A stretch of DNA of 64,000 nucleotides from an uncultured delta proteobacterium (lineage in GTDB: Bacteria > Desulfobacterota > WTBG01): contig CAWCBP010000004.1 of assembly GCA_963793865.1 (NCBI GenBank), positions 64,703 through 128,702 of the forward strand, in the 5' to 3' direction. The translations under genes were made by a program, and so were the position numbers. This document shows, piece by piece, positions 5,545 to 41,069 of this stretch (position 1 is the first letter of the stretch; each line of letters starts with the position of its first letter). Under the pieces are notes generated by a model. That model did no database searches, was not told the DNA's origin, and saw only the letters and a list, made by a program, of their open reading frames with translations.

Positions 5545-7860
5545 TTGTATAAACTCCAGTTAAAACGAGCACTTGTTGATAACCCCCGCACAGGATATGT
5601 AGAGGAGTTCCATCTTGTGAAATTTCCTGAATTTCATAAGCCGAAGGCATCGTCGATACTGCAGGAAAAAACCCGGCGCAAGCGGGAATTATTCATTATC
5701 ATTGCCGTCGTGCTCTCCATTGTCGTCCTCACCCTCTTGCAGGCATCCATTACCGCTTCCGAAAGCCAGCTGCCCACGACCAAAAACATCCTCATTTACG
5801 GTCTCATCAATATTAATATAACCCTCCTGCTGCTGCTCATTTTTCTGGTGGTGCGCAATGTCGTCAAGCTTGTCTTCGAGCGCAGGCGGGGCATCCTCGG
5901 CGCAAAGCTGCGGACCCGGTTAATAGCGGCATTTGTCGGCCTGTCCATCGTTCCCTCCGTCCTCCTCTTCTGGGTCGCCGCGGAATTTATAACCGCCACC
6001 GTAGAAAGGTGGTTCAGCTCCCAGGTGGAATACTCCCTGTCGCAATCACTCGAGGTCGCCGAGGTATATTACCAGAATACCACTGATAACGCCATGCACT
6101 ATGCCCGGCAAATCAGCAGGATCATTACCAGGGACAGGCTTTTAAGCGAGGCCAATCTCAAGCAGCTCCAGGATTTCATCAATCAGAAGCAGGAAGAATA
6201 CAACCTCGGGGTGGTTGAGGTCTTCTCCTCAACCCTGGAGGAACTGGTAAAGTCCATGAATCCCGGCGTGCCGGTAAAGGGCTTTGTCGGTTCCGATTCA
6301 GCGCTTGTGCAAAAAGGTTTGGAGGGAAAGGAGATTACCAAAATCCAGCCGGCAGGTTCAGGTGATCTCATCAGGGGAGTGGCGCCCATCTACTCCAGCT
6401 GGAAAAAGGACGAGGTGGTCGGGACGCTGGTGGTCAACTACTATGTACCCAAAAGTCTCGTTTCCAAGATGTCCACCATTTCCTACGCCTTCAGGGAGTA
6501 CAAGCAGCAGGAGCTGCTGAAGAATCCCATAAAAACGGCGAACCTGATGATTCTGGCCATTGTCACCCTGCTGATTATCTTCTCCGCCACCTGGTTCGGC
6601 TTTTTTCTTTCCAAGGGACTTACGGGACCTATCCAGCAGCTGGCTGAGGCGACCAACCGCATCACCCAGGGTGACCTGGATTTCACCATAGAAACGGGCA
6701 CTGATGATGAAATGGGAAGCCTGGTTACCTCCTTTAACAAGATGACCGCGGACCTGAAAGCGAGCAAAATCAAAATTGAACAGGCCACCCATGATCTGCA
6801 GGAAAGCAATCTGGAACTGGAGCGCCGGCGGCGGTACACGGAAACCATCCTTACCAACGTCGCGGCAGGAGTGGTCGCCATCGACGAAAGGGGCCTCATA
6901 ACCAGCATAAACAAATCCGCTGAAAATCTCCTCAGGACCACTGCCGGGGTGTCCCTCTCCAAACCCTACGAAGAGGCATTTGCCCAGGAGCAGGTTCAGG
7001 CTGTGCGGCAGCTGGTCAGGGACATACTCTCCTCGGGGAGGAACTCCTTCGACCAGCAGATCAGGCTCAACTTTCCCGACGACAGCATCGAGCTGCTGGT
7101 AAGCGGAACCATGCTGCACGATGACCAGGAAAACTATCTGGGACTGGTTCTGGTGTTCGAAGACATAACCCACATCCAGAAGGCGCAGCGGGCGGCGGCA
7201 TGGCGGGAGGTGGCGCGCAGAATTGCCCATGAAATCAAAAATCCCCTGACCCCCATTCAGCTCTCCGCGCAGCGCCTGAGGAAAAAGTACATGGACCGGT
7301 TCGAGGCCGACGGGAAAATCTTCGATGAATGCACCCGGATCATCATTGACCAGACGGAAGAGATCAAAAACCTGGTCAGCGAATTTTCAAACTTTGCCCG
7401 GATGCCCGCGACCACGCCGCAGCCCAACGATCTCACCGAGGTAATCAATGAGGCAGTCGCCCTTTTTACCGCCTCGCTGAAAGACATATCCATAACGGTG
7501 ATAGAAAAGAGCAAGCCGCCCGTCTTCAGCCTCGACAAGGACCAGATGAAGCGGGCGATCATAAACATCATCGACAATGCCATTGATGCCATGAGCGGCA
7601 AGGGAAGCATCGTCATTGAAATATCCCATGACCAGATATTCAACATTGCCCGGATCGAGATAGCCGACACCGGCTGCGGCATACCCCACGGCACGCGGGA
7701 AAAGCTCTTCGAGCCCTACTTTTCCACCAAAAAGTCAAATATGGGCCTCGGCCTGTCAATCGTGAGCACCATCATTTCCGATCACAACGGCTACATCAGG
7801 GTCAGGGACAATGATCCCCGGGGAACCAAATTTATTATCGAGCTGCCGGTCAGGATGTAA
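5545..7860 (+). CDS. ntrY: sensor histidine kinase, NtrY-like (TM-HAMP-PAS-HisKA-HATPase)
   Basis: N-terminal TM helices, HAMP, PAS, the H-box HEIKNPLTPIQLSAQRL, and N/G1/G2 ATP-binding boxes (DNAIDAM, DTGCGIP, GLGLSIV). The annotated start codon is TTG, so the true start is uncertain. A -35 TTGCAA / -10 TATAGT sits upstream near 5485-5525. Confidence 0.8.
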   Translation: MYKLQLKRALVDNPRTGYVEEFHLVKFPEFHKPKASSILQEKTRRKRELFIIIAVVLSIVVLTLLQASITASESQLPTTKNILIYGLININITLLLLLIFLVVRNVVKLVFERRRGILGAKLRTRLIAAFVGLSIVPSVLLFWVAAEFITATVERWFSSQVEYSLSQSLEVAEVYYQNTTDNAMHYARQISRIITRDRLLSEANLKQLQDFINQKQEEYNLGVVEVFSSTLEELVKSMNPGVPVKGFVGSDSALVQKGLEGKEITKIQPAGSGDLIRGVAPIYSSWKKDEVVGTLVVNYYVPKSLVSKMSTISYAFREYKQQELLKNPIKTANLMILAIVTLLIIFSATWFGFFLSKGLTGPIQQLAEATNRITQGDLDFTIETGTDDEMGSLVTSFNKMTADLKASKIKIEQATHDLQESNLELERRRRYTETILTNVAAGVVAIDERGLITSINKSAENLLRTTAGVSLSKPYEEAFAQEQVQAVRQLVRDILSSGRNSFDQQIRLNFPDDSIELLVSGTMLHDDQENYLGLVLVFEDITHIQKAQRAAAWREVARRIAHEIKNPLTPIQLSAQRLRKKYMDRFEADGKIFDECTRIIIDQTEEIKNLVSEFSNFARMPATTPQPNDLTEVINEAVALFTASLKDISITVIEKSKPPVFSLDKDQMKRAIINIIDNAIDAMSGKGSIVIEISHDQIFNIARIEIADTGCGIPHGTREKLFEPYFSTKKSNMGLGLSIVSTIISDHNGYIRVRDNDPRGTKFIIELPVRM

Positions 7861-7869
7861 GGAGAGGTA

Positions 7870-9222
7870 ATGAAACGAGTGAAGCTGCTGATTGTCGATG
7901 ACGAAGAAAAGATCCTTCAAACCATGAAGGGAAGCCTGGAAGATGAGGATTATGAAGTGCTCACCGCCAAGGACGGGCAGGAGGCCATGGAGAAAGTCCG
8001 CTCGGAAAATCCCGAACTGGTTTTTCTTGACATCTGGCTCCCGGGGATGGACGGCATGGAAACCCTCAAGGCCATCAAGGAATATGACCAGAACCTCGAC
8101 GTGGTGATCATGACCGGACACGGGACCATGAATACCGCCATCCAGGCCATCAAGCTCGGTGCCTTTGACTTTCTGGAAAAACCACTTTCCCTGGACTCCA
8201 TCTTCTCCGTCATTCACAGCGCCCTGGAACAAAAAAGGGGCAGGGCCGAGGAGGCGGAGCCGGCGATTGAGGAGCCGGACGATTTCATCGGTGAAAGCCT
8301 TTCCATCATGCAGATCAAGAAGGAGATAAAGAAGCTTGCCAAAACCGGGAAAAACCTCTTCATCACCGGGGAGAGCGGAACGGGAAAGGAGTTTGCGGCC
8401 CGGCTCATTCACCACGAGAGCCCGCGGAGAAAAAACCCCTTTATCAAATTCAGCTGCACCATCTATTCCCCCGAAGAAATGAGCCACAATCTTTTCGGGA
8501 CGGCGGCGCATGCATCCAGGAAAAACCTGGTTCGAAAAGCCGGCGAGCTGGAGCGGGCGGCAAAGGGGACCCTGTTTCTGGACACCATCGAGGAAATGCC
8601 TCTTTCCATCCAGGAAGAGTTGGCGGAGGCGCTCAAGAAGAAAAAAAACAAGGGGGGCGGCAAACAGGACAAGGCAAATGAGCCGAGAATCCTGGCATCG
8701 TCGAATGACGATCCGGCCTTAATGGTCAAAGAGGGCAAGTTGAACCAGGAGCTTTACGGGCTGCTGGCGGAGGGCACCATCATGCTGCCTCCCCTGCGGG
8801 AGCGAAAGGATGATATCCTGAAGATCTTTACCTTCTTCATGGAGGGATTCTCGCAGAAACACGGCCGGAAGATAAAAGAGCTGGATGAAGACGCGCAGGA
8901 AGCGCTGATGAACTACCACTGGCCGGGCAACAGCAAGGAGCTCAAAAATTTTGCCGAGCGGCTGGTAACATCCGTGGTGACCACCGCCAAAATCGGCCTG
9001 GAAAGCCTGCCCCTTTCCATGCGGGGAGAGCTCGCCGCTTCAAAAACGCGCGCCTTCGACAAATACACTTCCATGAAGGAGGCGGAAAATGCCTGGAAAA
9101 AGGAGTTTCTCATCTTCCACCTGAAGAAGCACAACGTCGACATTCCCGCAACCGCGCGGAGCCTCGGCATGCGCCAGGACACGCTGAGGCGCCATATAGA
9201 CACCTTCGGCATCAAGCTGATG
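7870..9222 (+). CDS. ntrX: sigma-54-dependent response regulator (NtrX/NtrC family: REC + AAA+ sigma-54 activator + Fis-type HTH); no stop codon, reads in-frame into lpxC
   Basis: Receiver LLIVDDEE...DIWLPGMDG; the AAA+ Walker A motif GESGTGKE; a GAFDF-like motif; and a C-terminal HTH ATARSLGMRQDTLRRHIDTFGI. It is 451 aa, a typical NtrC-family length, but the ORF continues without a stop into the next gene. Confidence 0.75.
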
Positions 9223-10083
9223 CCCGGCAAAAAAACCGCGGCGGGTCCCCGCCAGAGAACGCTCAAGAAAAGCGTGGTCTTAAGCGGTGAGGGGCTTCAT
9301 TCAGGGATGAAATCGGGGCTGATACTGTCTCCCCTTCCGCCCAACAGCGGGATCGTGTTCGGCAACATCACTACCAGCGATACCGTGCCCGCCCACCTTG
9401 ACTTCGTGGAATCCACCGACTACGCCACCTCCCTGAAGAGCGGGCAGGCGTATGCCCGGACCATCGAACACTTCATGGCGGTGCTCCATGCCTACCACAT
9501 CAGCAACCTTCAGGTCAAAATCAGCGGCGAAATCCCCATCATGGACGGCTCGGCGCTTGAATTCTGCCAGCTTATCGAGGAGGCGGGCATCGATGAGCAG
9601 GACGCCCCCCTCGAGGAAATCGTCATCGAGGAGAAATATGTGGTCGGCGACCCCTCGCCGGACTCCAAGTACATTTCCATAGAGCCGCACCCCTCCTTCA
9701 CCGTCAAATACCTGCTCAACTACCCCAGCCCGGTGGGCAAACAGGAATTCTCCTTCACCTTAAAGGACGCTCAATCCTTTAAGGACCTCATCGCACCGGC
9801 ACGCACCTTCGGCTTCCTCAAGGATATTGGTGAGCTGCAGAAGCGGGGTTTGGCCAGCGGGGGAAAGCTGCTCAACTGTATTCTCATCGATGATGAAAAG
9901 GTGGTGAACACTGAGCTGCGCTTCCCGGAAGAGTTTGCCCGCCACAAAATCCTTGATCTCATGGGCGACTTTTACCTGCTGGGCAAACCCATACGCGGCC
10001 TGGTGACCGCCCAGATGACCGGCCACACGGACAACAGCGAGCTCTTAAAAAAGATACGTGACAGCCTCGGCGCCTTCTGGTAA
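9223..10083 (+). CDS. lpxC: UDP-3-O-acyl-N-acetylglucosamine deacetylase
   Basis: MPGKKTAAGPRQRTLKKSVVLSGEGLHSGMK...EHFMAVL...IPIMDGSA...ARTFGF..GGKLLNCILIDD...HKILDLMGDFYLLG aligns along its full length to LpxC (about 287 aa). It sits in the same frame as ntrX with no intervening stop. Confidence 0.8.
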   Translation, partial: PGKKTAAGPRQRTLKKSVVLSGEGLHSGMKSGLILSPLPPNSGIVFGNITTSDTVPAHLDFVESTDYATSLKSGQAYARTIEHFMAVLHAYHISNLQVKISGEIPIMDGSALEFCQLIEEAGIDEQDAPLEEIVIEEKYVVGDPSPDSKYISIEPHPSFTVKYLLNYPSPVGKQEFSFTLKDAQSFKDLIAPARTFGFLKDIGELQKRGLASGGKLLNCILIDDEKVVNTELRFPEEFARHKILDLMGDFYLLGKPIRGLVTAQMTGHTDNSELLKKIRDSLGAFW

Positions 10084-15489: not shown

Positions 15490-16083
15490 CTACCATATGT
15501 GCTCTTGTTTCATAGCATTCATGTTCTCAGGATTATCCTGATCCAATTCCCATTGCAATGGATTATTGAGGATGTACTCGCGTGCACGGTTTAACTCTTC
15601 TTCCCTGCGGATAACATGTTCGTAGTAATTGCGCTGCCACAATTTCCCTGAATAACGGGGCCATTTCAATTGTTTCACACCATCTGAATACCGTTTGATG
15701 GTCATGGTTTTAAAGCTTTGTACCAAGTCCGGTAATCCCTTTGTAGGGGCAACCCCCCGTGGTTGCCCATTATGCGCAGGGCAGGCACGGGGGCCTGCCC
15801 CTACCAAGACAATGATTCCATGCACATGATTAGGCATCACAACAAATGCATCTGTTTCTACCCCCTGATAATGTGATGACAATTCTTCCCAGATCACCTG
15901 AACCATCCCTCCAGCAGTATTTAAAAGCATCTGTCCTTTAATAACTTCACCAAACAAACATTGCCTATTCTGTGTGCACAGGGTTATAAAATACGCTCCC
16001 GACTGGGCGTAATCGTATCCGCTTAACCTTATTGAACGGCGTCTATTTCCTGGCCGGGTGTTTATGATTATGTCCTGTATCAT
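15490..16083 (-). mobile_element. REP-associated tyrosine transposase (RAYT, IS200/IS605 TnpA_REP-like) carrying an in-frame internal REP copy
   Basis: HUH motif NHVHGII, catalytic-Tyr region WQRNYYEHVIRREEELNRAREYILNNPLQWE. Residues VGAGPRACPAHNGQPRGVAPTKG are the translation of a REP copy (15743-15803) lying inside the ORF. Confidence 0.8.
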
Positions 16084-17173: not shown

Positions 17174-17557
17174 ATAAACCTCCCCCGGCGTAAATTTTTA
17201 CTATTGATTAGAAAATAAACTACATGGAGGGACGCGCTCCGTCGCGTCCGAATAATACATGCGGCCATGACAGAGCATGGCCCTCCATCATCAATGGTCA
17301 TCCTGCGACTTGATCGCAGGATCCAATAAAATATAATAATACCAATTAAAAATTTAATGCAACCTTTTAATGCCCCAGACAAGGCGCGTGCAGCGGCAAG
17401 ATAGCGTTTGACATAATGAGACAGAATGCTACTGTATTTAACTATCAGCATCCGGTAAAGCATTGCCATGCACGCGCTCGCAGGGACGTTCAGCGCAAGG
17501 GAATGATCCGCGCACCCCGTCTCTGTTCCGGGCACACATACTGAAAAGGGAGGTCGC

Positions 17558-18491
17558 AATGATTCTCATCACCGGCGCCGCAGGCCACATCGGGAAAAGA
17601 ATGGTGGACAGATTTATCAAAAAGGGCATTACTGCATGGGCATCGACTGCGTCGGCAGCGGTCGGTTTCCGGAAAAGATCGTGCGTGCCATGGATATCAG
17701 AGATCCCTCCCTGGGGTCATTGATTGAGAAGAACGGCATTGACTCCATAATCCATCTCGCCTTTTGCACCAAGGCGACGAATTGACGACCGGGCACGCGA
17801 TTCCATCGACCTGGACGGATCCCAAAACATCGCCGACTGCGCGGTGCGGCACGGGGTGCGGAACATCGTTTTCGCGAGCAGCGGAAGGGTATACGGGGAC
17901 CGGAGAAAGCCCGGGGGATTGTATGACCGCTGCGGGAATTACCTTAACCCGGCGGATGATCGCTATGCCCGGAACAAGATAAAGGCTGAATCCCTGTTCT
18001 TCAAGGCGGGGGATGAGCACGGGATCAGTGTTGCCGTGCTCCGCCTGGCCATCGTCTGCTGGAGTGGCGGGGGAGCAGGCATGGGTGACATGCTCAAGGC
18101 AACCGCGAGAAGCGGACGCTTCATCACCCTGGGGAAGCACAACCCCCCGATCCAGCTGGTGCACGTGGATGACGTAACCGATGCCTGCTTCAATGCCATC
18201 GGGAAAAGCGGCATATTCGATATCGGCTCCGAGCAGACCATGCCGCTCCGGGAGATGTTCAGCGAAGCCGCCCGGCTTGGAGGGAAAACACCCTCCCCCC
18301 TTAAACTCCCTGAGGGACTTACCCTGGGCCTGGTGGGCCTTCTCTGGCGCATCGGCCTCTGCCCCGTTCCGCCCCTCTATCTTAAAATGTTCGGCTACGA
18401 CATCACCAGGGACATCTCGCCAACAGCCGCCCTGCTGGGCCGGCCGCACTATTCCATGAGCTCCATACTCAGGGAAATCGTTGCAGGCTGA
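17558..18491 (+). pseudogene. NAD-dependent epimerase/dehydratase, disrupted by at least two frameshifts
   Basis: The N-terminus MILITGAAGHIGKRMVDRF (Rossmann GxxGxxG) is at 17558. The C-terminal two-thirds (ORF 17844..18491, ...NIVFASSGRVYGD...) is in another frame, and the middle segment is in a third frame with stops. Confidence 0.65.
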
Positions 18492-18710
18492 TCTGCTCCA
18501 TCCAGCACCCGGCAGGGTGCGGAGGGACGCTCACACTGATTATCGGAGTTAAAGCAACCGATAGCGCCATCATATCGGCATACCGCTTCCTATTACCCCT
18601 GACATCATGACACAGGCCTGTCGATGGGATTATTCCTCCAACCTCCTTCTCCCGTTTATTTTGCGGACGATAAAAAGGATGTGCGCACGGGACCGCGTCT
18701 TCCTGATATT

Positions 18711-18726
18711 TGGTACACAAATTGCT
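18711..18726 (+). promoter_or_regulatory. candidate sigma-54 (-24/-12) promoter upstream of the kamA operon
   Basis: TGGTACacaaaTTGCT has exact GG-N10-GC spacing of the TGGCAC-N5-TTGCW consensus. It lies 58 nt upstream of the ATG at 18784. The window also encodes a sigma-54 activator. Confidence 0.45.
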
Positions 18727-18783
18727 TCACACTTCAGCGGGCATATATACACGCTGGATGCACTTTCACCTGTGGAGACATGC

Positions 18784-20055
18784 ATGGAATCACACACAAG
18801 ATCGCTGGCCCGATGCAACCGTCACAAGAAATCCTATCTATTGGAGGAGGCAGACAGTCCGGATGACAAGCCCCCCAGTCATAGCAGGCTTACCGTCCCG
18901 CAGATGTTCCGCGGCGTTACTGCTTCACAGTGGAACGACTGGCGGTGGCAGTTTCGGAATCGCATCACCACCGTTGATCAGCTTAACCGCTACCTCCCGC
19001 TGACCGCGGATGAAAAGGCGGCCCTTGCGCTTACCATTGCAACCTACCCCATGGCCATAACCCCCTATTATTTTTCCCTCATTTCCGGCGATGATCCCGA
19101 CGATCCCATCAGGCTTCAGGCAGTCCCCCGCGTGGAAGAGATCGCGCTCAGCCAGTACGGGCAGGAGGACCCCCTGGCTGAAAATGAGGATGCCGTCGTC
19201 CCCGGCCTGGTGCACCGCTATCCCGACCGCTGCCTGATGGTTCTGACCAACATCTGCCCCATGCTCTGCCGGCACTGCACGCGCAAGTGGGCGTGGAAAA
19301 GCGGGGCCTGGGTGCGCACGCAGCAGGAGGTCCAGCGCATGCTGGGCTACGTTCGCTCAAACACCTCCATCAGAGATGTGATCATATCCGGGGGTGACGT
19401 GCTGAGCCTCTCCACCCGGAGGCTTGAATCGATCATCGCCCAGCTGCGCTCCATCCCGCACCTGGAGATCATCCGCATCGGCACGCGCTACCCGGTGGTG
19501 CTCCCCCAGCGCATCGATGAAGCCCTCTGCTCCATGCTGGCCGGGTACGGGCCCATCTGGGTCAACACCCATTTTAATCATCCCCGGGAACTCACGGCGG
19601 AGGCGGCAGCGGCCTGCGACCGCCTGCTGCGGAGCGGCATCCCGCTTAACAACCAGTCGGTTCTGCTGAAGGGCGTCAACGACACGGCGGAAATTCAGCG
19701 TGCGCTCTGCCAGGGGCTCCTGCGCATCAAAGTCAGGCCCTACTACCTTTTTCAGACCGATGATGTGGAGGGGACGGAGCACCTGCGCGTCCCCATCGAA
19801 ACCGGCATCGCCATCATGGACGCCCTGCGCGGCCACACCTCGGGTCTTGCCGTACCGCAGTTCGTTGTCGACCTGCCGGGCGGAGGGGGAAAGGTGCCGC
19901 TTCAGCCCGATTACCTGCTGGAGCAGCATGAAGAGGAATTCGTGTTCCGCAACTACGAGGGCCGGGTCTACCGCTGCAGAAATCCCCGAAGGCAGAAGGA
20001 GCCCGGCAGGGTCCCGTTAACCGTCATGCACAAGCCGCATACAACCCTCATGTAA
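18784..20055 (+). CDS. kamA: lysine 2,3-aminomutase family radical SAM protein (KamA/AblA-like)
   Basis: Cluster motif CPMLCRHCTRKW (CxxxCxxC of the KamA type), N-terminal WNDWRWQFRNRITTVDQL, and a PLP-region GGD motif. The longest ORF starts at 18607; the start is set at the ATG at 18784. Confidence 0.8.
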   Translation: MESHTRSLARCNRHKKSYLLEEADSPDDKPPSHSRLTVPQMFRGVTASQWNDWRWQFRNRITTVDQLNRYLPLTADEKAALALTIATYPMAITPYYFSLISGDDPDDPIRLQAVPRVEEIALSQYGQEDPLAENEDAVVPGLVHRYPDRCLMVLTNICPMLCRHCTRKWAWKSGAWVRTQQEVQRMLGYVRSNTSIRDVIISGGDVLSLSTRRLESIIAQLRSIPHLEIIRIGTRYPVVLPQRIDEALCSMLAGYGPIWVNTHFNHPRELTAEAAAACDRLLRSGIPLNNQSVLLKGVNDTAEIQRALCQGLLRIKVRPYYLFQTDDVEGTEHLRVPIETGIAIMDALRGHTSGLAVPQFVVDLPGGGGKVPLQPDYLLEQHEEEFVFRNYEGRVYRCRNPRRQKEPGRVPLTVMHKPHTTLM

Positions 20056-20081
20056 CTGCACAGCTCAAGGTGCGCATTTAA

Positions 20082-21092
20082 ATGATACTGGGCCTGGCAT
20101 ACGATCTGAAAAGCGATATCCTCCCCGGTGAGGCCGATCCCGATGACGCGCTGGAGGAGTACGATTCGGCCGAAACCGTGGACTCCATAGCCGAAGCGCT
20201 TGTCTCGCTGAAGCACACGGTGGTTCGCCTGGGGGGCGGAAAATCCTTTCTCACCTCGGTCCTCAGCCAGCGGGTGGACATGGTCTTCAACATCTCTGAA
20301 GGACGGGGCAATTACCGGAGCAGGGAGGTGCAGGTGCCGGCGGTCCTGGAGATGCTCGACATCCCCTACGTCGGCTCTGACCCGGCATGCCTTGCCGTCT
20401 GCCTGGACAAGCCCCTGGCAAAACACCTGGCGGCATCGGCCGGCATTCCGACGCCCCGATGGCGTTTAATAGCCGACCGGAAGGCACTTGACAGCAGCCC
20501 GTCCGGCTTCACCTTTCCCGCTTTTGTCAAACCCGCCTGGGAGGGATCCAGCAAAGGCATCGGCAAAACCTCCAGGGTGACCGGGTTCCCGGAGATGGAG
20601 CGTGAAGTCATCCGGCTGCTCACCCTGTACCGTCAGCCGGTCCTGGTGGAGGAATTTATTCAGGGAAGAGAGCTTACCGTGGGCATCGTCGGTACCCCGC
20701 CCCGGGTCATGGGCATTATGGAAGTGATTCCCCGCCGGGGGACTGACCCCGACTTTTTTTACTCCATAGACATCAAGCGCGACTGGCGGCGCCAGGTGCG
20801 CTACCAATGCCCCGCTGATTTGTCCGCCGGACTGGAGGAACGTATTGTCGCCCACAGCCTGAAGCTGTTTAAAATCCTGGGGTGCAGGGACATGGCCCGC
20901 ATTGATTTCCGCCTCGACCCGCAGGGACAGCCGTATTTTATTGAGGCCAATCCCCTGCCCGGGCTCAAGCCGGGCCACGGCGACTATCCCCTGATCGCCC
21001 GGCACCGGGGTATTGACTATCGTACACTCATCGGGTCCATCATTGACAGCGCCATCAGCCGGCAGCAACCATGCGCACGGATGTCTGCATAG
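20082..21092 (+). CDS. ATP-grasp ligase, D-alanine--D-alanine ligase-like
   Basis: Ddl-type N-domain followed by an ATP-grasp fold (...GRELTVGIVG..., FIEANPLPGL). 336 aa. Its end overlaps the start of the next gene. Confidence 0.7.
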   Translation: MILGLAYDLKSDILPGEADPDDALEEYDSAETVDSIAEALVSLKHTVVRLGGGKSFLTSVLSQRVDMVFNISEGRGNYRSREVQVPAVLEMLDIPYVGSDPACLAVCLDKPLAKHLAASAGIPTPRWRLIADRKALDSSPSGFTFPAFVKPAWEGSSKGIGKTSRVTGFPEMEREVIRLLTLYRQPVLVEEFIQGRELTVGIVGTPPRVMGIMEVIPRRGTDPDFFYSIDIKRDWRRQVRYQCPADLSAGLEERIVAHSLKLFKILGCRDMARIDFRLDPQGQPYFIEANPLPGLKPGHGDYPLIARHRGIDYRTLIGSIIDSAISRQQPCARMSA

Positions 21093-22114
21093 TATATAAT
21101 GAGCCCTTGCCCGGCGCGTTCGAGGCCGCGGGCGAAAGCACCGCGGTTGCCAGCGTGCTTGACGCGGTGAGCGCCGTGGCCGAGGCCCTTCGCTCAAGGG
21201 GATACTCCTATTATCTGCTTCCCATCAAACCGGGCGGGTGCAGCGACATGCTCCGGCGCCTGGCCCGGCTGAACCCCGGGATAATTTTCAACCTCTTTGA
21301 GGGCTTTGACCGGGACCCCGACAGCGAGGGAAGGGTTGCCCGCCTGCTCGAGGAAACCGGCATTGCCGTCACTGGCGCACCGTCGGGCGCCCTCACCGAC
21401 TGCATCAACAAGGTGAAGACCAAGTCACGCCTGCGCAGCCTCGGCCTGCCGACTGCCGACTGGCAGCTTTACCAACCCTGTGCCGCCATGCAGCTGCCGG
21501 CACCTGCGCTTCCCTTCCCCTGTGTTGTCAAGCCGCTGGAGACGGACGCAAGCCACGGGTTAACCGAGCGGAGCCTGGTCGGCAACCTTCATGAAATGCG
21601 TGAACAGGTTGAGCTGGTGCACGCCCGCTACGGGCAGGCGGCGCTGGTGGAGGAATTCCTCCCCGGCCGCGAGTTTAACATCCTGGTCATGGGTCCGCCC
21701 CTGCGCCTCTTCTCCGTCGCCGAGATCTGCTACAGCCTGCCCGCAGGCAAACCGCAGCTGCTCACCTACGCATCCAAGTGGGAAGAGGATGATGAATACT
21801 ATGCCGCAACCCGGGTGCAGTGCCCCGCTCAGCTGTCTGATGCCGATGCCCGTGCGATTGAAAACCTGGCCGCCCGCACCTTTGTCGAGCTGGTCGGGAG
21901 GGGTTACGCGCGGATCGACATGCGCGCAGACAGCTCGGGTGAGATTAACATACTGGAAATAAACCCCAATCCTGACATTGGCCCGGCAAGCGGCGCCAAG
22001 AGGGAAGCAGAGGCGTCCGGCATGAGCTATGACGACTTCCTCTGTAATATCATGGCACAGGCCCGGTCCGGACGGGATTCCGCCGCCCCCGGCGCCTGTG
22101 CATACCTGTCCTGA
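21071..22114 (+). CDS. ATP-grasp ligase, D-alanine--D-alanine ligase-like (second paralog)
   Basis: VCIVYNEP..., KTKSRLRSLGLPTADW, GREFNILVMG, ILEINPNPD give the same architecture as the preceding gene. Confidence 0.7.
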   Translation: MRTDVCIVYNEPLPGAFEAAGESTAVASVLDAVSAVAEALRSRGYSYYLLPIKPGGCSDMLRRLARLNPGIIFNLFEGFDRDPDSEGRVARLLEETGIAVTGAPSGALTDCINKVKTKSRLRSLGLPTADWQLYQPCAAMQLPAPALPFPCVVKPLETDASHGLTERSLVGNLHEMREQVELVHARYGQAALVEEFLPGREFNILVMGPPLRLFSVAEICYSLPAGKPQLLTYASKWEEDDEYYAATRVQCPAQLSDADARAIENLAARTFVELVGRGYARIDMRADSSGEINILEINPNPDIGPASGAKREAEASGMSYDDFLCNIMAQARSGRDSAAPGACAYLS

Positions 22115-22123
22115 TGACATCCC

Positions 22124-22666
22124 ATGCAGAAAACAACCGACCCGCCGGCACCTTCGCCGCTTCAACCCCCTCAGTCCGTACCGCCCGCATATCTCCGTGA
22201 AATGAGGGCCGACGACAAGGAGCCGCTGCTCGCCATCCTGCGCGCGACGCGGGAGTTCAAGGCCTCGGAGGTGCCGGTTGCCGAAGAGCTGCTCACCGCG
22301 TTTCTTGAGGGGCCGCTGACTTCGGGATATTATGTCTGGGTGGCGGTGGAGGAAGGCTCATCGGTCAGGAGGGGATATGTATGCTTCGGGCCGACTCCCC
22401 TCACCGAGGGGACCTGGGACATTTACTGGATCGTGGTGGACAACGCCTTCCGCGGCACCGGCATCGGCAGGGCGCTCCTGCGCCATGCCGAGCAGGAGAT
22501 TCGAAACGCGGGAGGAAGGATGATCCTGATTGAAACCTCGTCAAAGGAAGAGTACCGCGGTACGCACCGGTTTTACGAGGAAATGGGATACCGTCAGGTC
22601 GGGTTCATCGCCGATTTCTACACGCCGGGCGACGGAAAGATAACCCTGCAGAAACTGCTGCGGTAG
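22124..22666 (+). CDS. GNAT family N-acetyltransferase
   Basis: Acetyl-CoA binding motif A, IVVDNAFRGTGIGRALLRHAE. About 180 aa. It is last in the same-strand cluster. Confidence 0.75.
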   Translation: MQKTTDPPAPSPLQPPQSVPPAYLREMRADDKEPLLAILRATREFKASEVPVAEELLTAFLEGPLTSGYYVWVAVEEGSSVRRGYVCFGPTPLTEGTWDIYWIVVDNAFRGTGIGRALLRHAEQEIRNAGGRMILIETSSKEEYRGTHRFYEEMGYRQVGFIADFYTPGDGKITLQKLLR

Positions 22667-22985: not shown

Positions 22986-24759
22986 ATGACTGGTAAGAGG
23001 ACTTATTTCATGAAGACCGCGCTTGTTATAATAATTATGGTAAGCCTGACGGCAGCACTCTCATGTAAAAGAAAAATCTCCTGCAACCCGGATGAAGGGT
23101 CGGTGTGTCCCTCGGGAACTGTCTGCAAAGCCGTGGCAGCCAATAAGGGCCAGTGTCTTTACACCTGCGAACCCGGTGATGACAACCCCTGCGTCCTGAA
23201 AAACGAGGTGTGCCTGCGCTATGCCGACGACACCTATGCCTGCACGCCCCGATGCACTCCCGGCGTCATAAATACCTGTCCGGCCGATTGGGTATGCGTT
23301 CCGGTGATGGGTGATGAGCACGTGTGCCGGCCGGAGTGCGACCTGAGCACCAATCTCTGCGAAGACAACGAGGTCTGCCAGCCGCTGCCCGACGACACGG
23401 CCGCCTGCATGGCCCAGTGCGACCCGCAGGGGTCTGATTGCGGTGAGAACCAGGTATGCGAGCTGAGAACCGACGGTCTGTATGCCTGTTACGAGCCCGT
23501 GTACATAAGAGGGACCATTTTTGATTCCGCCTCGGAAAGCCCGGTAGAAGGCGCTCATGTCATCGCCATAGACAAAACCGGGGCGGCCGCGACCGATGTC
23601 GCGGTAACCGACGGCGAGGGAGCGTATGAACTCCAGGTCCCGGTGGTGAGAAATCCCGACGGCACCCTCGACGAAGGGACATTCACCCTGCGCGCTTCAG
23701 CGGCTGATTACCTCCCCTTCCCTCATGGCATCAGGCCGGCCATACCCGTTGATGCAGCGACGGCATCACAGGATGAAGGTGAATGGGTTCTGGAAAATGC
23801 CGCAACCGAAATCGCCCTGATAGCCCTTCCCCCGGAAAAGAGGGGACAGGGTAGCATCGCGGGAAACATCGTAACCGATGAAGACGATGTCAGCGCGGGA
23901 GGAGTGATGGTTGTGCTTGAAGGCGCAACGCAGGATCAAACAATTGGCTTCAGCGACAAAAGCGGTGCCTATACCCTCTTCAACGTACCCGAAGGCAGCT
24001 GGGAGATTCACGGGTACAAGGCATTTTTGCAGCTTACTCCGGTGGCGGTGACGCTGGCCGCGGGAGAGGACAGGACCGGGGCGGATCTCATTTCCAATGA
24101 CAAACCCTACGGGACGGTCAGTGGGTCAATTAATATAGTCAACGCGCCGGGTGGTTCAGTCACCAGCGTGGTGCTGGTTCCGGAGTCAACCTTCAACGAT
24201 ACCTTCGTGAAAGGAGAGGTGCCTCCCGGCTTGCGCGCGCCGGCGCCTCCGGAGGAACCATCAATAACAGGAGCATTTACCATCGAAGGGGTTCCCGACG
24301 GTCGATACGTGGTGCTTGCCGCCTTCGAGAATGACATTCTGGTGCGCGATCCGGATTCTCAAATTGCGGGCACAGAAATTCTCCACCTGCAGGTGCCCGA
24401 CAGGCACCAACTACAGCATCGACATAGCAGACTCTTTCAAAGTCACTGAGGCCCTGGTAATTGTTTCGCCGGGCGCCGGCGAGCCGGAACTCATAACCGG
24501 TACCCCCGATTTTGTATGGAGGGATGATTCAAGTGAAACCAGGTACGAACTGGTAGTGTATAATGCTTTTGGCGATGAGGTGTGGAGGAATGACAATGTG
24601 CCCAAGGTCACAGGATCGGAAACTGTAACGGTTACCTATGCGGGAAGCCCTTTGCAGCCGGGCATGTATTACCAGTTCAGAGTAAAAAGCTGGCGGGACA
24701 CCGGTCCCATCTCCCAGACCGAAGATCTGCTGGGTGTTTTCTACACCGCGGCAGAGTAG
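22986..24759 (+). CDS. Cys-rich secreted lipoprotein with carboxypeptidase-regulatory-like beta domains; frameshift near 24395
   Basis: Signal peptide with lipobox-like AALSC. N-terminal repeated C-x-P-x-x-x-C modules (CNPDEGSVCPSGTVCK, CEPGDDNPCVLKNEVC...). ORFs 22986..24449 and 24316..24759 are two frames of one gene. AAGGAGG lies upstream of the start. Confidence 0.6.
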
Positions 24760-36199: not shown

Positions 36200-39100
36200 T
36201 CAGTATATCTCCCCGAACAGGCAATAATCACAGCAGTTCATTCTGCCCAGGGCTTTATCAATCATCACCAGCACATCAAAGATGTCTATGTCATTATCGC
36301 TCTCACAGTTCGGGGTACCGGATGGATTTCCGCAATAGGGAGGCAAACCATTGGGCACATCCCCGTTACCAATCTGGCAGTCAGTAGCCGTCTGGAGATT
36401 CAGGATAATATCAACCGCTTCAAGGATATCAAACAGGTCCACTATGCCGTCGCCGCAGCAGGTCGGAGCACCGCAGGTCCCGCCGATGCAGTCCTGGGGA
36501 TAAATATCACCGCAGGTGGTGAAGCAGACCTCGCCCGGGCTTTCGCAAACGCACAGATCCTCGTTATACTGATCTGAAATCTTGCTGGCAACCGGACAAA
36601 GATCAACGCAGGCGTCCTCGCCACAGGTATCCTGCTCAGGCCCTGCTGAATAGACTATCCGGGCAACGGTTCCTCTTCCCTGTGTAATAATGGCCGACGG
36701 ATCGGTCGAGTACAGGACTATCCTGCAGCACCCGTCTGCCTGCTCATTAGCTGAGCAGCTGAAATCGAGGGCGCGGTCAGGATCAACCACACACTGGGTG
36801 CATACCAGGTTGTCCTCCCCGCCTGCGCACTCACAGATATCCGTGACCATCGCCCGTATACTATGTTCCGGGTTAATGAGATTCAGATCAACCAGCCCCG
36901 ACTCGCTGTTGGGCTGCATGTTGGTGTCGCCAATATCCACAATCACCTTGCCGATGTCGATTTCTACACTATCAGTACCCCATTCGCAGGTGTCGGTTAC
37001 CGTTATTTCGTATTGCGCAATTTTATCAAGCTGCTGGCAGGAATCGTCAATGGTCAACCTCCAGCAGCAGTTATCGATCTGGTCAATGCTTAAGAATGGT
37101 TCTGCCGGATCGATTGACCACGCCAGGCACGACGGATCGAACGGGTCGCAGTCAGAGCAGACAGTAAAATCGATGACATCATTACATGTGGCGGCAAGTC
37201 CGCGCCTTCCCGGCCGGTTGTATGCGGGATCATTAATCTCTTCACCGGGGCACGTCCTGCCCCGGGCAATTTCAATACCGCACACACAGCCCGGAATCTT
37301 GGTTCCAACACACGTACCGGCAACGCAGACATCGTCTTTGGTACAGGAGTCGGCATCATTGCAGGGTAGTGTATTGTTGGGATTGCTGCAGCCCACTCCT
37401 ACTGTGCATATGTCGCCAGTGCAAACATTATTGTCGGAACAGAGTGTATTGTCAGGCGTTCCGTTACAGGTACCGTCTGAGCAGGTGTCGTTCTGGGTGC
37501 AGGCCAGCGTATCATCGCAGGGCAGAGTGTTGTTAGGATGGGAGCATGTTCCGGAACCGTTGCAGACGTCATTGGTGCAGACGTTGCCATCGTCATCGGT
37601 ACAGGTGGTACCGTTAGCGGTATAGCAGTTATCTGCGGATTCGTTACAAGTGTTGTTGCAATCAGGCCCGCTGCTGCAGGGATCGCCGGCATGGACTGAG
37701 CAACTCCCTACGCCGCAGGTATCGGTACCGTTGCAGTATAAGCCGTCATCGCAGGCGGTACCGTCAGGAGGATAGCAGTTGTCGGCAGTCTCGTTGCATG
37801 TATTGTTGCAGGCCGGCCCGCCAATGCAGGGGTCGCCGGCATGCACTGAGCAACTCCCGCCGCTGCAGGTATCGGTACCATTGCAGTATACGCTGTCATC
37901 GCAGGGCAGAGTGTTGTTAGAATGGGAGCAGGTTCCGGAGCCGTCGCAGACATCGTTGGTGCAGACGTTGCCGTCATCGGTACAGGAGGTGCCGCTTGAG
38001 GTGGAGCAGTTATCTGCGGATTCGTTGCAGGTATTGTTGCAATCAGGCCCGCTGCTGCAGGGATCGCCGGCATGGACTGAGCAACTCCCGCCGCTGCAGG
38101 TATCGGTACCATTGCAGTATAAGCCGTCAGTGCAGGCGGTGCCGTTAGGGGGATAGCAGTTGTCGGCAGCCTCGTTGCAGGTGTTGTTGCAGATGGGCCC
38201 GCCGCTGCAGGGGTCCCCGGCATGAACAGAACAACTCCCGCCGCTGCAGGTATCCGTACCAGTGCAGTACAAGCCGTCATTGCAGGATGCGGTGTTGTTG
38301 GTATGCACGCAGCCGGTCGAGATATTACAGCTGTCAGTTAGTGCAGATGTTGCTGTCATCACAATTTGGTGCCGCTCCTCCAACGCATGTCCCGCCTGAA
38401 CAGGTGTCACTGGTGGTGCAGGCGTTTCCGTCATTGCAGGATGCGGTGTTGTTGGTATGCACGCAGCCGGTCGAGATATTGCAGCTGTCGTTGGTGCAGA
38501 CGTTGCTGTCATCACAATTTGGTGCCGCTCCTCCAACGCATGTCCCGCCTGAACAGGTGTCACTGGTGGTGCAGGCGTTTCCGTCATTGCAGGATGCGGT
38601 GTTGTTGGTATGCACGCAGCCGGTCGAGATATTGCAGCTATCGTTGGTGCAGACGTTGCTGTCATCACAGCTCAGTGCCGCTCCTCCAACGCATGTCCCG
38701 CCTGAACAGGTGTCACTGGTGGTGCAGGCGTTTCCGTCGCTGCAGGATGCGGTGTTGTTGGTATGCACGCAGCCGGTCGAGATATTGCAGCTATCGTTGG
38801 TACAGACGTTGCTGTCATCACAGCTCAGTGCCGCTCCTCCAACGCATGTCCCGCCTGAACAGGTGTCACTGGTGGTGCAGGCGTTTCCGTCATTGCAGGA
38901 TGCGGTGTTGTTGGTATGCACGCAGCCGGTCGAGATATTGCAGCTGTCGTTGGTGCAGATGTTGCTGTCATCACAATTTGGTGCCGCTCCTCCAACGCAT
39001 GTCCCGCCTGAACAGGTGTCACTGGTGGTGCAGGCGTTTCCGTCATTGCAGGATGCGGTGTTGTTGGTATGCACGCAGCCGGTCGAGATATTGCAGTTGT

Positions 39101-41069
39101 CGTTGGTGCAGACGTTGCTGTCATCACAATTTGGTGCCGCTCCTCCAACGCATGTCCCGCCTGAACAGGTGTCACTGGTGGTGCAGGCGTTTCCGTCATT
39201 GCAGGATGCGGTGTTGTTGGTATGCACGCAGCCGGTCGAGATATTGCAGCTGTCGTTGGTGCAGACGTTGCTGTCATCACAATTCGGTGCCGCTCCTCCA
39301 ACGCATGTCCCGCCTGAACAGGTGTCACTGGTGGTGCAGGCGTTTCCGTCATTGCAGGATGCGGTGTTGTTGGTATGCACGCAGCCGGTCGAGATATTGC
39401 AGCTATCGTTGGTGCAGACGTTGCTGTCATCACAATTTAGTGCCGCTCCTCCAACGCATGTCCCGCCTGAACAGGTGTCACTGGTGGTGCAGGCGTTTCC
39501 GTCATTGCAGGATGCGGTGTTGTTGGTATGCACGCAGCCGGTCGAGATATTGCAGCTATCGTTGGTGCAGACGTTGCTGTCATCACAATTAGGTGCCGCT
39601 CCTCCAACGCATGTCCCGCCTGAACAGGTGTCACTGGTGGTGCAGGCGTTTCCGTCATTGCAGGATGCGGTGTTGTTGGTATGCACGCAGCCGGTCGAGA
39701 TATTGCAGCTGTCGTTGGTGCAGGCGTTGCTGTCATCACAGCTCAGTGCCGCACCACCAACGCATGTCCCGCCTGAACAGGTGTCACTGGTGGTGCAGGC
39801 GTTTCCGTCATTGCAGGATGCGGTGTTGTTGGTATGCACGCAGCCGGTCGAGATATTGCAGCTATCGTTGGTGCAGATGTTGCTATCATCACAGCTCAGT
39901 GCCGCTCCACCAACGCATGTCCCGCCTGAACAGGTGTCACTGGTGGTGCAGGCGTTTCCGTCATTGCAGGATGCGGTGTTGTTGGTATGGGTGCACGTTC
40001 CGGAGCCGTCGCAGAGATCGTCGGTGCAGACATTGCCATCATCGGCGCAGGATGTCCCGCTTGTGGTGTAGCAGTTATCTCCGGATTCGTTACAGGTGTT
40101 GTTGCACTCAGAGCCACCAGTGCAGGGGTCTCCAGAGTGCACACAGCTCCCTCCGCTGCAGGTGTCGGCGCCGTTGCAGTATAAGCCGTCATCACAGGAA
40201 TACCCATCCTCTCTCGGGGTGGAAACGCACTGACCAGTTCTGGTGCTGCATACACCGACGCTGCAGGCATCATCCAGGTCTGAACAGTCGACATTCTGGC
40301 AAATATTAGGATCGGTTGCAGTGGTGACACAATCTGACGGGTCAGAATTCGGCTGCTCCGAGGCAATAGCACAGGAATCGGAAATTGGCACACAATCACT
40401 GTCTACGCCACAACTAGCTCCGCTTACGGCACACATGTTATTTTCGCAACGCTCGCCATACACGATGTCATCTATTTCTATCAGGCATTTGACGAACGCA
40501 TCTTCAGTAGTACAGTCTGTCCCAAAACAAGTGTGTGTAATACCATAGGGATCAGCATCTTCTCCTGATGGTTCGCTTCCGCCCACATTTACATAACAAA
40601 TGGAAGTAAATGCTTCAATTTCAACGCTATTAGTACACCTATCATACCTATCATCGTTACACTGGAAAAATCTCGGGCTGAAAGAGCTCTGAGTCGCCGG
40701 AGGACCACCCTCAACGGTCACACAGAGTGCATAGTTCGCGTATGTGTCAAAGTCCGAATCGAAAAGTATACAGCTATTACCCGTGTTAGCACCAGACCAT
40801 CTTGTGTCATCAAAGTTGAACGTCACAGTCAGTTCAAACTGATTCTCACCCGGTCCCACACAGTACTCGGTTACGTCCTTTTGACCCGGTTCGTCATCCA
40901 TCCCTTGCAGGTCTACGCTACAGACCTGCGCCGCTACCGGCAAAACATCGATGGATGAGTAGCCCAAAACGATTGCAAACGTGAAGATCAGTAGTATGAG
41001 AAAGCTTTTTGTTTCTTTCCCGATGATTATTGATGATGAACGTTTTCCCGCTACTTTTCTCAATATCAA
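36200..41069 (-). CDS. giant secreted Cys-rich repeat protein (about 1620 aa) with about 11 tandem 50-aa repeats and a C-terminal dockerin-like domain; one 1-bp frameshift near 38340
   Basis: N-terminal TM/signal sequence. Repeats are CDDSNVCTNDSCNISTGCVHTNNTASCNDGNACTTSDTCSGGTCVGGAAPN. The downstream modules are diverged (CNGTDTCSGGSCSVHAGDPC...). The terminal region GDGIVDLFDILEAVDIIL...SDNDIDIFDVLVMIDKALG resembles paired dockerin Ca-binding segments. ORFs 38334..41069 and 36200..38668 are joined by removing one inserted T in the last repeat. Confidence 0.7.
38340..39960. repeat. tandem array of about 11 near-identical 150-bp coding repeats (in-frame, inside the giant Cys-rich gene)
   Basis: Copies show more than 95 % nucleotide identity with scattered point differences (AALS/AAPN/AALN variants). 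Every alternative-frame ORF in the six-frame track across this span is repeat shadow. Confidence 0.9.

Follow-up and report, generated by a model that had tools for sequence, protein, structure and literature searches.

Within a stretch of 64,000 nucleotides (nt) from an uncultured delta proteobacterium (contig CAWCBP010000004.1 of assembly GCA_963793865.1, positions 64,703 to 128,702 of the forward strand; hereafter the window, 64 kb), four co-directional genes occupy positions 18784-22666 on the forward strand. According to the listing of open reading frames (ORFs) and to Pfam and NCBIfam profile scans of the window proteins, they encode, in this order, the aminomutase KamA, two ATP-grasp ligases related to D-alanine (D-Ala)–D-Ala ligase (Ddl), here called AG1 and AG2, and a GNAT acetyltransferase. 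A preliminary description, made from the DNA letters and translated ORFs, had pictured this set as tightly packed or overlapping, and the ORF coordinates and domain scans agree: 26 nt separate the KamA stop codon from AG1, AG1 and AG2 overlap by 22 nt, by which AG2 is translationally coupled to AG1, and GNAT begins 9 nt behind the AG2 stop. Translation of KamA probably starts at the ATG at 18784, which is preceded by GGAGAC and whose context is also kept in relatives. An intrinsic terminator was searched for 3' of GNAT, and none was found. The features of the operon and its upstream region are the following:

18541-18578 (+): candidate upstream activator sequence, TATCGG-N11-CCGATA-N9-TATCGG, made up of inverted and direct repeats.
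18711-18726 (+): sigma-54-type -24/-12 element TGGTACACAAATTGCT (= TGGTACacaaaTTGCT; TGGTAC-N5-TTGCT), found by pattern scan.
18784-20055 (+): KamA-family lysine 2,3-aminomutase of the radical S-adenosylmethionine (SAM)/pyridoxal phosphate (PLP) type, 423 amino acids (aa), within ORF 18607-20055.
20082-21092 (+): AG1, ATP-grasp ligase of the Ddl fold whose substrate site is remodelled, 336 aa.
21071-22114 (+): AG2, second and more divergent ATP-grasp ligase of the Ddl fold, 347 aa.
22124-22666 (+): GNAT, small N-acetyltransferase, 180 aa, with matches to Acetyltransf_1/7/10.

KamA combines the Pfam domains Radical_SAM and LAM_C, passes the KamA family model TIGR00238 of NCBIfam (327.6 bits against a cut-off of 199.2) and aligns with the solved lysine 2,3-aminomutase of Clostridium subterminale (2A5H) at an E-value of 4e-128. 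The CxxxCRHCTR signature from which the gene had originally been recognised holds up in this alignment, where the CPMLCRHCTRK motif, a CxxxCxxC radical-SAM motif, matches C125/C129/C132 of 2A5H through its CPMLCRHC part. All residues of a lysine-type pocket are likewise kept, namely the carboxylate-binding R134, the PLP-carrying K337, and D293 and D330, which bind the ε-ammonium group. Together with the cluster cysteines these four residues are invariant in the KamAs of homologous clusters (74/74), and the lysine-pocket residues also persist in both divergent copies from Desulfovibrio described below. In glutamate 2,3-aminomutase, the positions of Asp293 and Asp330 are reportedly taken by Lys and Asn. 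The AblA equivalog TIGR03820 is the best-scoring model for KamA, yet the protein stays below its cut-off (468.3 versus 525.4 bits), as it does with the models for the glutamate (437/650) and arginine (409/600) enzymes and for EpmB (240/369). A glutamate or arginine 2,3-aminomutase is ruled out by the pocket residues and the model scores; the lysine-type pocket and the ranking of the models suggest that β-lysine is the most likely product of KamA.

Both AG1 and AG2 match the Pfam family Dala_Dala_lig_C, as expected of the two Ddl-like ligases that had been proposed. For a comparison at residue level, 68 AG1 and 69 AG2 sequences were aligned to E. coli DdlB, a reference whose residues 58-303 were checked against a PDB alignment. 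The ATP-binding and catalytic residues K97, K144, E180, E187, R255, D257, E270 and N272 (DdlB numbering) are kept in every one of these sequences, and both proteins are predicted to be catalytically competent ATP-grasp enzymes. The residues around the D-Ala site are another matter. The GGxSxE motif with E15 of DdlB is absent from both ligases, its place being taken by an invariant YDLK...ALEEYD in AG1 and by a V-Y-N-E type segment in AG2, and H63 has become an invariant Glu in both (E77 in the AG2 of the window). S150 is kept in AG1 and is Ala in AG2 (A160 in the window); Y216 corresponds to a gap with an Arg nearby in AG1 and to Trp in AG2 (W237 in the window); L282 is replaced by an invariant Asp (Asp301) in AG1 and by Gly in AG2; and G276 is kept in AG1 and is Asp in AG2 (D302 in the window). 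AG1 adopts the Ddl fold, and the sequence and fold neighbours of the ligases are all Ddl/Van ligases. Compared with Ddl and VanA-type ligases, however, AG1 and AG2 are only 24–31% identical, they miss the NCBIfam cut-off for Ddl (NF002378, 243 bits) with scores of 173.9 and 123.5 bits, respectively, and they are found without a cell-wall gene context. The replaced D-Ala-site residues and the scores below the Ddl cut-off rule out that either protein is an ordinary Ddl, and they argue for two distinct, diverged paralogues on a Ddl scaffold that have apparently been re-specified, with substrate sites that look new and more acidic.

The assignment of the fourth gene to the GNAT acetyltransferases is upheld by Pfam domains well above their gathering scores (Acetyltransf_7, 54.4 versus 27; Acetyltransf_1, 48.8 versus 20.7) and by homology to 2R7H, which is its closest and only close solved relative (E-value 2e-29). 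This structural-genomics entry from Desulfovibrio G20 is labelled 'putative D-alanine N-acetyltransferase', and a full-text literature search found no paper on it. The best NCBIfam match of GNAT is a weak one to RimI (40 bits, with the cut-off at 86). Because the NCBIfam scan at E<=1e-3 gave no match to an AblB model, GNAT does not appear to be an AblB orthologue.

A gene-neighbourhood search, suggested in the preliminary description as a check, revealed that the gene order is conserved across phyla. Protein searches returned thousands of relatives of AG1 at about 55% identity and about 2,000 clusters of GNAT at 90% identity, and contig look-ups placed KamA-AG1-AG2(-GNAT) on contigs of Chloroflexota. 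In a scan that used one genome per species, 297 species matched AG1 patterns; the best 80 of these 297 were fetched and proved to be nearly all uncultured Dehalococcoidia, plus three metagenome-assembled genomes (MAGs) of Thermodesulfobacteriota. Among these best 80 of 297, about 75 species genomes have the order KamA-AG1-AG2-GNAT, and tblastn with the four window proteins located them in that order on one strand in essentially every sufficiently long locus. All-against-all ORF clustering of 86 loci recovered these four genes as the only ones conserved family-wide. A search with the 2R7H sequence led to two further loci, in the complete genome of Desulfovibrio mangrovi (CP104208.1, region 3,558,300-3,562,300) and on a G20-like contig, both with the arrangement activator-KamA-AG1-AG2-GNAT and with protein identities to the window of 46% (KamA), 38% (AG1), 29% (AG2) and 40% (GNAT). 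The order is thus found in Dehalococcoidia, Thermodesulfobacteriota, Desulfovibrio and other metagenomic contigs, a synteny far beyond chance. In two species (L004/L005 and L048), AG2 and GNAT even form a single polypeptide. Ordinary Ddl enzymes in a cluster without synteny had been named beforehand as the outcome that would speak against a dedicated pathway; what was found is a lost D-Ala site and a conserved gene order.

The closest relatives of the window include L007, a Thermodesulfobacteriota MAG with about 91–94% DNA identity, and L006, in which KamA and AG2 carry apparent frameshifts. The operon differs from its surroundings in G+C content (0.61–0.63 at window positions 19000-22000 versus 0.50–0.58 in the flanks and neighbouring genes), and its proteins are about 55–65% identical to the versions of Dehalococcoidia and only 29–46% to those of Desulfovibrio. 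The G+C offset and the closer identity to Dehalococcoidia hint at a lateral transfer between Dehalococcoidia and the Thermodesulfobacteriota lineage of the window.

The operon had further been assigned to a sigma-54 promoter, a claim that is supported within one lineage of the carriers. The GG and GC doublets of the -24/-12 element are 10 nt apart, and the element lies 58 nt ahead of the KamA start codon. The pattern TGGYAY-N5-TTGCW has two matches in the 64 kb, compared with 0.29 expected, and at least two matches occurred in 4 of 100 shuffles; this count is by itself modest and only weakly significant evidence. The second exact TGGTAC-N5-TTGCT is located at 38798-38813 (+), within the overlapping long ORFs 38287-40071 (+) and 38334-41069 (-). 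Identical or near-identical 16-mers precede KamA in L006–L009, and in the related species L007, L008 and L009 the 16-mer upstream of the orthologous KamA is kept while the nearby intergenic DNA has diverged. The same three relatives also keep the block GATTATCGGAG..CAACCGATAGC..CATATCGGCATA amid diverging intergenic DNA; this TATCGG/CCGATA block, about 135–170 nt upstream of the -24 element, might serve as an activator site. In the Desulfovibrio clusters (D. mangrovi and the G20-like contig) a gene for a sigma-54 activator lies directly upstream of KamA, and the DNA between the two genes contains canonical -24/-12 elements, TGGCATATCTGTTGCT at one of these loci and TGGCATGGCAGTTGCT at the second, with TGGCAT-N5-TTGCT placed as in the window, as well as two GGAAC-N6-GTTCC palindromes. 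No sigma-54 motif was found upstream of the 69 Dehalococcoidia copies, and sigma-54 control is therefore not universal to the cluster. Sigma-54 control appears to be real and ancient within the Desulfobacterota, and would represent a lineage-specific regulatory overlay on a more widely distributed gene set. Neither an aminomutase nor a Ddl-like target figures in the paper on the sigma-54 regulome of D. vulgaris or in its supplements.

No activator gene adjoins the operon in the window itself, where the only one seen lies 9 kb away and unlinked, at 7870-10083 (+). Its 737-aa product comprises a response-regulator receiver domain, the AAA+ domain of sigma-54 activators with its lid, and a complete LpxC (PF03331, 4.6e-81) in the place usually occupied by the DNA-binding domain. 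This could be a genuine activator-LpxC fusion, or else two genes that an assembly error has joined. A gene for an NtrY-like histidine kinase precedes it at 5545-7860 (+).

Besides the four core genes, two further genes accompany the cluster in some genomes. One of them encodes a protein of 580–597 aa with a weak GNAT-like domain at the N-terminus and an acetylpolyamine amidohydrolase (APAH) domain at the C-terminus, the latter matching solved APAHs with an E-value of 1e-66. The Desulfovibrio and Dehalococcoidia versions of this GNAT-like/APAH protein, for which NCBIfam has no family, share about 60% identity. Its gene is situated directly downstream of GNAT in D. mangrovi, near the cluster in 11 Dehalococcoidia loci and, on the metagenomic contig L090, inside the operon with AG2 on one side and GNAT on the other. 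The second encodes a CxxCxxCC protein (PF03692) and occurs in two divergent clusters, where it directly precedes AG1; the two proteins are 51% identical. Examples are:

L087, 8629-10386; L090, 5211-7004; and L067, 10540-12264 (Dehalococcoidia): GNAT-like/APAH protein.
L089, 234-737; and L090, 2671-3195: CxxCxxCC protein (PF03692).

Genes for a MarR-like regulator, an ArsB/CitMHS permease and MarC are neighbours in only 10–20 Dehalococcoidia loci. Clustering of the flanking ORFs of the 86 loci yielded no family-wide conserved gene for an exporter, a peptidase or a precursor peptide, which fits a cytoplasmic small molecule.

Taken together, the lysine-type KamA, two seemingly re-specified ligases, GNAT, the coupling and occasional fusion of the genes and the associated deacetylase fit a cytoplasmic small-molecule pathway. 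We consider it probable (roughly 0.6) that the operon in the window is under sigma-54 control and directs the biosynthesis of a cytoplasmic amide derived from β-lysine. This estimate applies to the class of pathway; our confidence in any exact product or role is much lower. In the proposed sequence of reactions, KamA would convert L-lysine to β-lysine by a radical-SAM/PLP-dependent 2,3-amino shift, and AG1 and AG2 would then form one amide bond each via an acyl-phosphate. The acidic replacements in both ligases would suit a diamino acid as carboxyl donor, presumably β-lysine, which could be bound by the acidic residues now found where Ddl has its D-Ala1 site. GNAT might acetylate one of the amines that are still free, the ε-amine on a β-lysyl unit being the most plausible target, and the association with APAH suggests that the acetyl group is carried by an alkyl amine of this kind. 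The resulting N-acetylated β-lysyl di- or tri-amide might have a solute-like role, which we favour on the model of two compatible solutes, Nε-acetyl-β-lysine and N-acetylglutaminylglutamine amide (NAGGN). In some genomes the APAH-like enzyme of the same cluster could take the acetyl group off again, for recycling or deprotection. Transcription in the window would proceed from the -24/-12 promoter, activated from the TATCGG/CCGATA site by some enhancer-binding protein. The evidence thus supports the earlier idea of a pathway that extends beyond AblA/AblB and uses two ligases to build a larger acetylated β-lysine conjugate, the nature of which we infer from the enzymes encoded.

Several points weigh against this interpretation. 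What AG1 and AG2 act on is guessed from residue changes. KamA scores just under the cut-off of the AblA equivalog (468 versus 525 bits) and may therefore act on a related basic substrate. A contig of the Thermoguttaceae (L089) has the arrangement CxxCxxCC-AG1-AG2-GNAT and no adjacent KamA, so the core of ligases and GNAT may be able to do without β-lysine. Many carriers of the cluster are Dehalococcoidia from freshwater, groundwater or peat, habitats that do not obviously call for an osmolyte. Finally, the deacetylase gene within the operon of L090 means that the acetyl moiety could be only a transient protecting group.

If that last point is taken further, the cluster could follow a protect-ligate-deprotect route whose free, polycationic product, either an oligo-amide of β-lysine or a β-lysyl-polyamine, functions as polyamine surrogate or antimetabolite, with acetylation as a transient protecting or self-resistance measure reversed by the APAH-like enzyme. 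The strong APAH match of this enzyme, whose gene is inside the operon in L090 and downstream in at least 11 other loci, would be in line with such a route, and amine-rich substrates would be suited by the acidic N-terminal motif and the invariant Asp301 of AG1 at the L282 position, where Ddl binds the carboxylate of its second substrate. The deacetylase is not nearby in most clusters, however, the window included, and a conserved exporter or immunity gene is lacking; we regard this route, the foremost of the alternatives, as rather unlikely.

Plain synthesis of Nε-acetyl-β-lysine in the manner of AblA/AblB, with the ATP-grasp genes as functionally unrelated passengers, would formally need no more than KamA and GNAT, and AblA is indeed the top-scoring model for KamA. 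It is nevertheless difficult to reconcile with ligase genes that practically all loci have between KamA and GNAT, that are translationally coupled by their 22-nt overlap and sometimes fused to GNAT, and with a GNAT that is not AblB-like, so that we judge it highly improbable. Modification of a protein, similar to the β-lysylation of elongation factor P (EF-P), would have the ATP-grasp enzymes act on a protein side chain and would make GNAT a RimI-like enzyme, and it can draw on the established use of β-lysine, made by the KamA paralogue EpmB, to modify EF-P as well as on RimI being the best, though weak, NCBIfam match of GNAT. Since KamA stays below the EpmB cut-off, an EpmA-like gene is absent and no gene for a candidate target protein is conserved alongside, only a slim chance is left for this explanation. 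That AG1 and AG2 are cell-wall enzymes, namely alternative D-Ala-D-X ligases for peptidoglycan remodelling, as their exclusively Ddl/Van sequence and fold neighbours might suggest, appears largely refuted and hardly credible in view of D-Ala-binding residues that are not conserved, scores far under the Ddl cut-offs and genes that are linked to KamA and GNAT in all of the fetched loci and to mur genes in none.

Some other parts of the window also deserve mention. Upstream of the operon, the NAD-epimerase gene at 17463-18491 is broken in comparison with the close relative L006, with an in-frame stop near 17721, and at 22986-24759 the gene for a CarboxypepD_reg-like secreted protein is frameshifted near 24400-24440 relative to the same genome; these two genes are either pseudogenes or assembly errors. 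A 197-aa ORF (15490-16083, -) with a transposase-like ...MPNHVHGII... motif separates the DUF362 gene of the window from the chlorophyllase-like gene; in L006 the distance between these two genes is just 56 nt, and the ORF is a possible small mobile-element insertion. The 911-aa protein encoded at 38334-41069 (-) has ten Cys-rich repeats of the Dictyostelium CTDC type (PF00526, 1.9e-65), and the 822-aa ORF beside it (36200-38668, -) has no Pfam match.

The cluster proteins are currently annotated as 'D-alanine--D-alanine ligase' (Ddl), RimI-like or ATP-grasp proteins, and NCBIfam has no model specific to any of the four. A full-text literature search found no description of the cluster; most subscription journals were outside this search, so that an earlier description is possible. 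The enzyme families are known, but neither their combination nor the product it implies is, in keeping with the initial impression that this is not a described pathway. To our knowledge, β-lysine metabolism in prokaryotes takes the form of lysine fermentation, Nε-acetyl-β-lysine synthesis, EF-P modification and the non-ribosomal synthesis of peptide antibiotics. A widespread operon that joins β-lysine formation to two ATP-grasp ligations and one acetylation suggests a metabolite that has so far gone unrecognised, and its carriers are environmentally important anaerobes, among them Dehalococcoidia, sulfate reducers and some Planctomycetota. Misannotation of the proteins as Ddl or RimI-like also inflates the apparent cell-wall gene content of these organisms. 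Tentatively, one could go further and envisage β-lysine oligo-amides from two Ddl-derived ligases as a new metabolite class, in which GNAT and the APAH-like deacetylase would act as an acetyl on/off switch; such compounds might be polyamine surrogates or stress solutes in anaerobes such as Dehalococcoidia and Desulfovibrio, and evolution would have turned the Ddl scaffold to diamino-acid substrates on two occasions. The presence of the cluster in culturable, genetically tractable Desulfovibrio, together with the existing crystal structure of a GNAT, makes the question directly testable.

Among known systems, AblA/AblB makes Nε-acetyl-β-lysine in methanogens and in some bacteria (Pflüger et al., 2003, cited in PMC3543383). 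Both systems unite in one operon a KamA-family aminomutase with the Asp293/Asp330 pocket and a GNAT, and a cytoplasmic acetylated β-lysine compound is the proposed product here as well. Unlike AblA/AblB, however, the cluster has two ATP-grasp ligases between these two genes, its KamA is under the AblA equivalog cut-off, its GNAT of 160–180 aa does not match the AblB model, and it is apparently under sigma-54 control in Desulfobacterota. NAGGN is reported to be synthesised by Ngg, a bifunctional protein with GNAT and ATP-grasp parts, and AsnO. In that system too, N-acetylation is combined with peptide-bond formation by an ATP-grasp enzyme, in the present cluster sometimes in one polypeptide, and NAGGN is an acetylated dipeptide solute; the cluster differs in containing an aminomutase and no amidotransferase, in the Ddl type of its ATP-grasp enzymes, and in the order of its rare fusion, in which the ATP-grasp part precedes GNAT. 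EpmB, a KamA paralogue, supplies the β-lysine that EpmA attaches to EF-P through an amide bond to a lysine ε-amine. There, the ligase is a LysRS paralogue that acts on a protein. The KamA of the cluster does not reach the cut-off of the EpmB model (240 versus 369 bits). In pyrrolysine biosynthesis, the radical-SAM lysine mutase PylB makes an unusual diamino acid, which the ATP-grasp ligase PylC (structure 4FFL) couples via an amide bond. The cluster shares this logic of a radical-SAM lysine mutase followed by ATP-grasp amide coupling.

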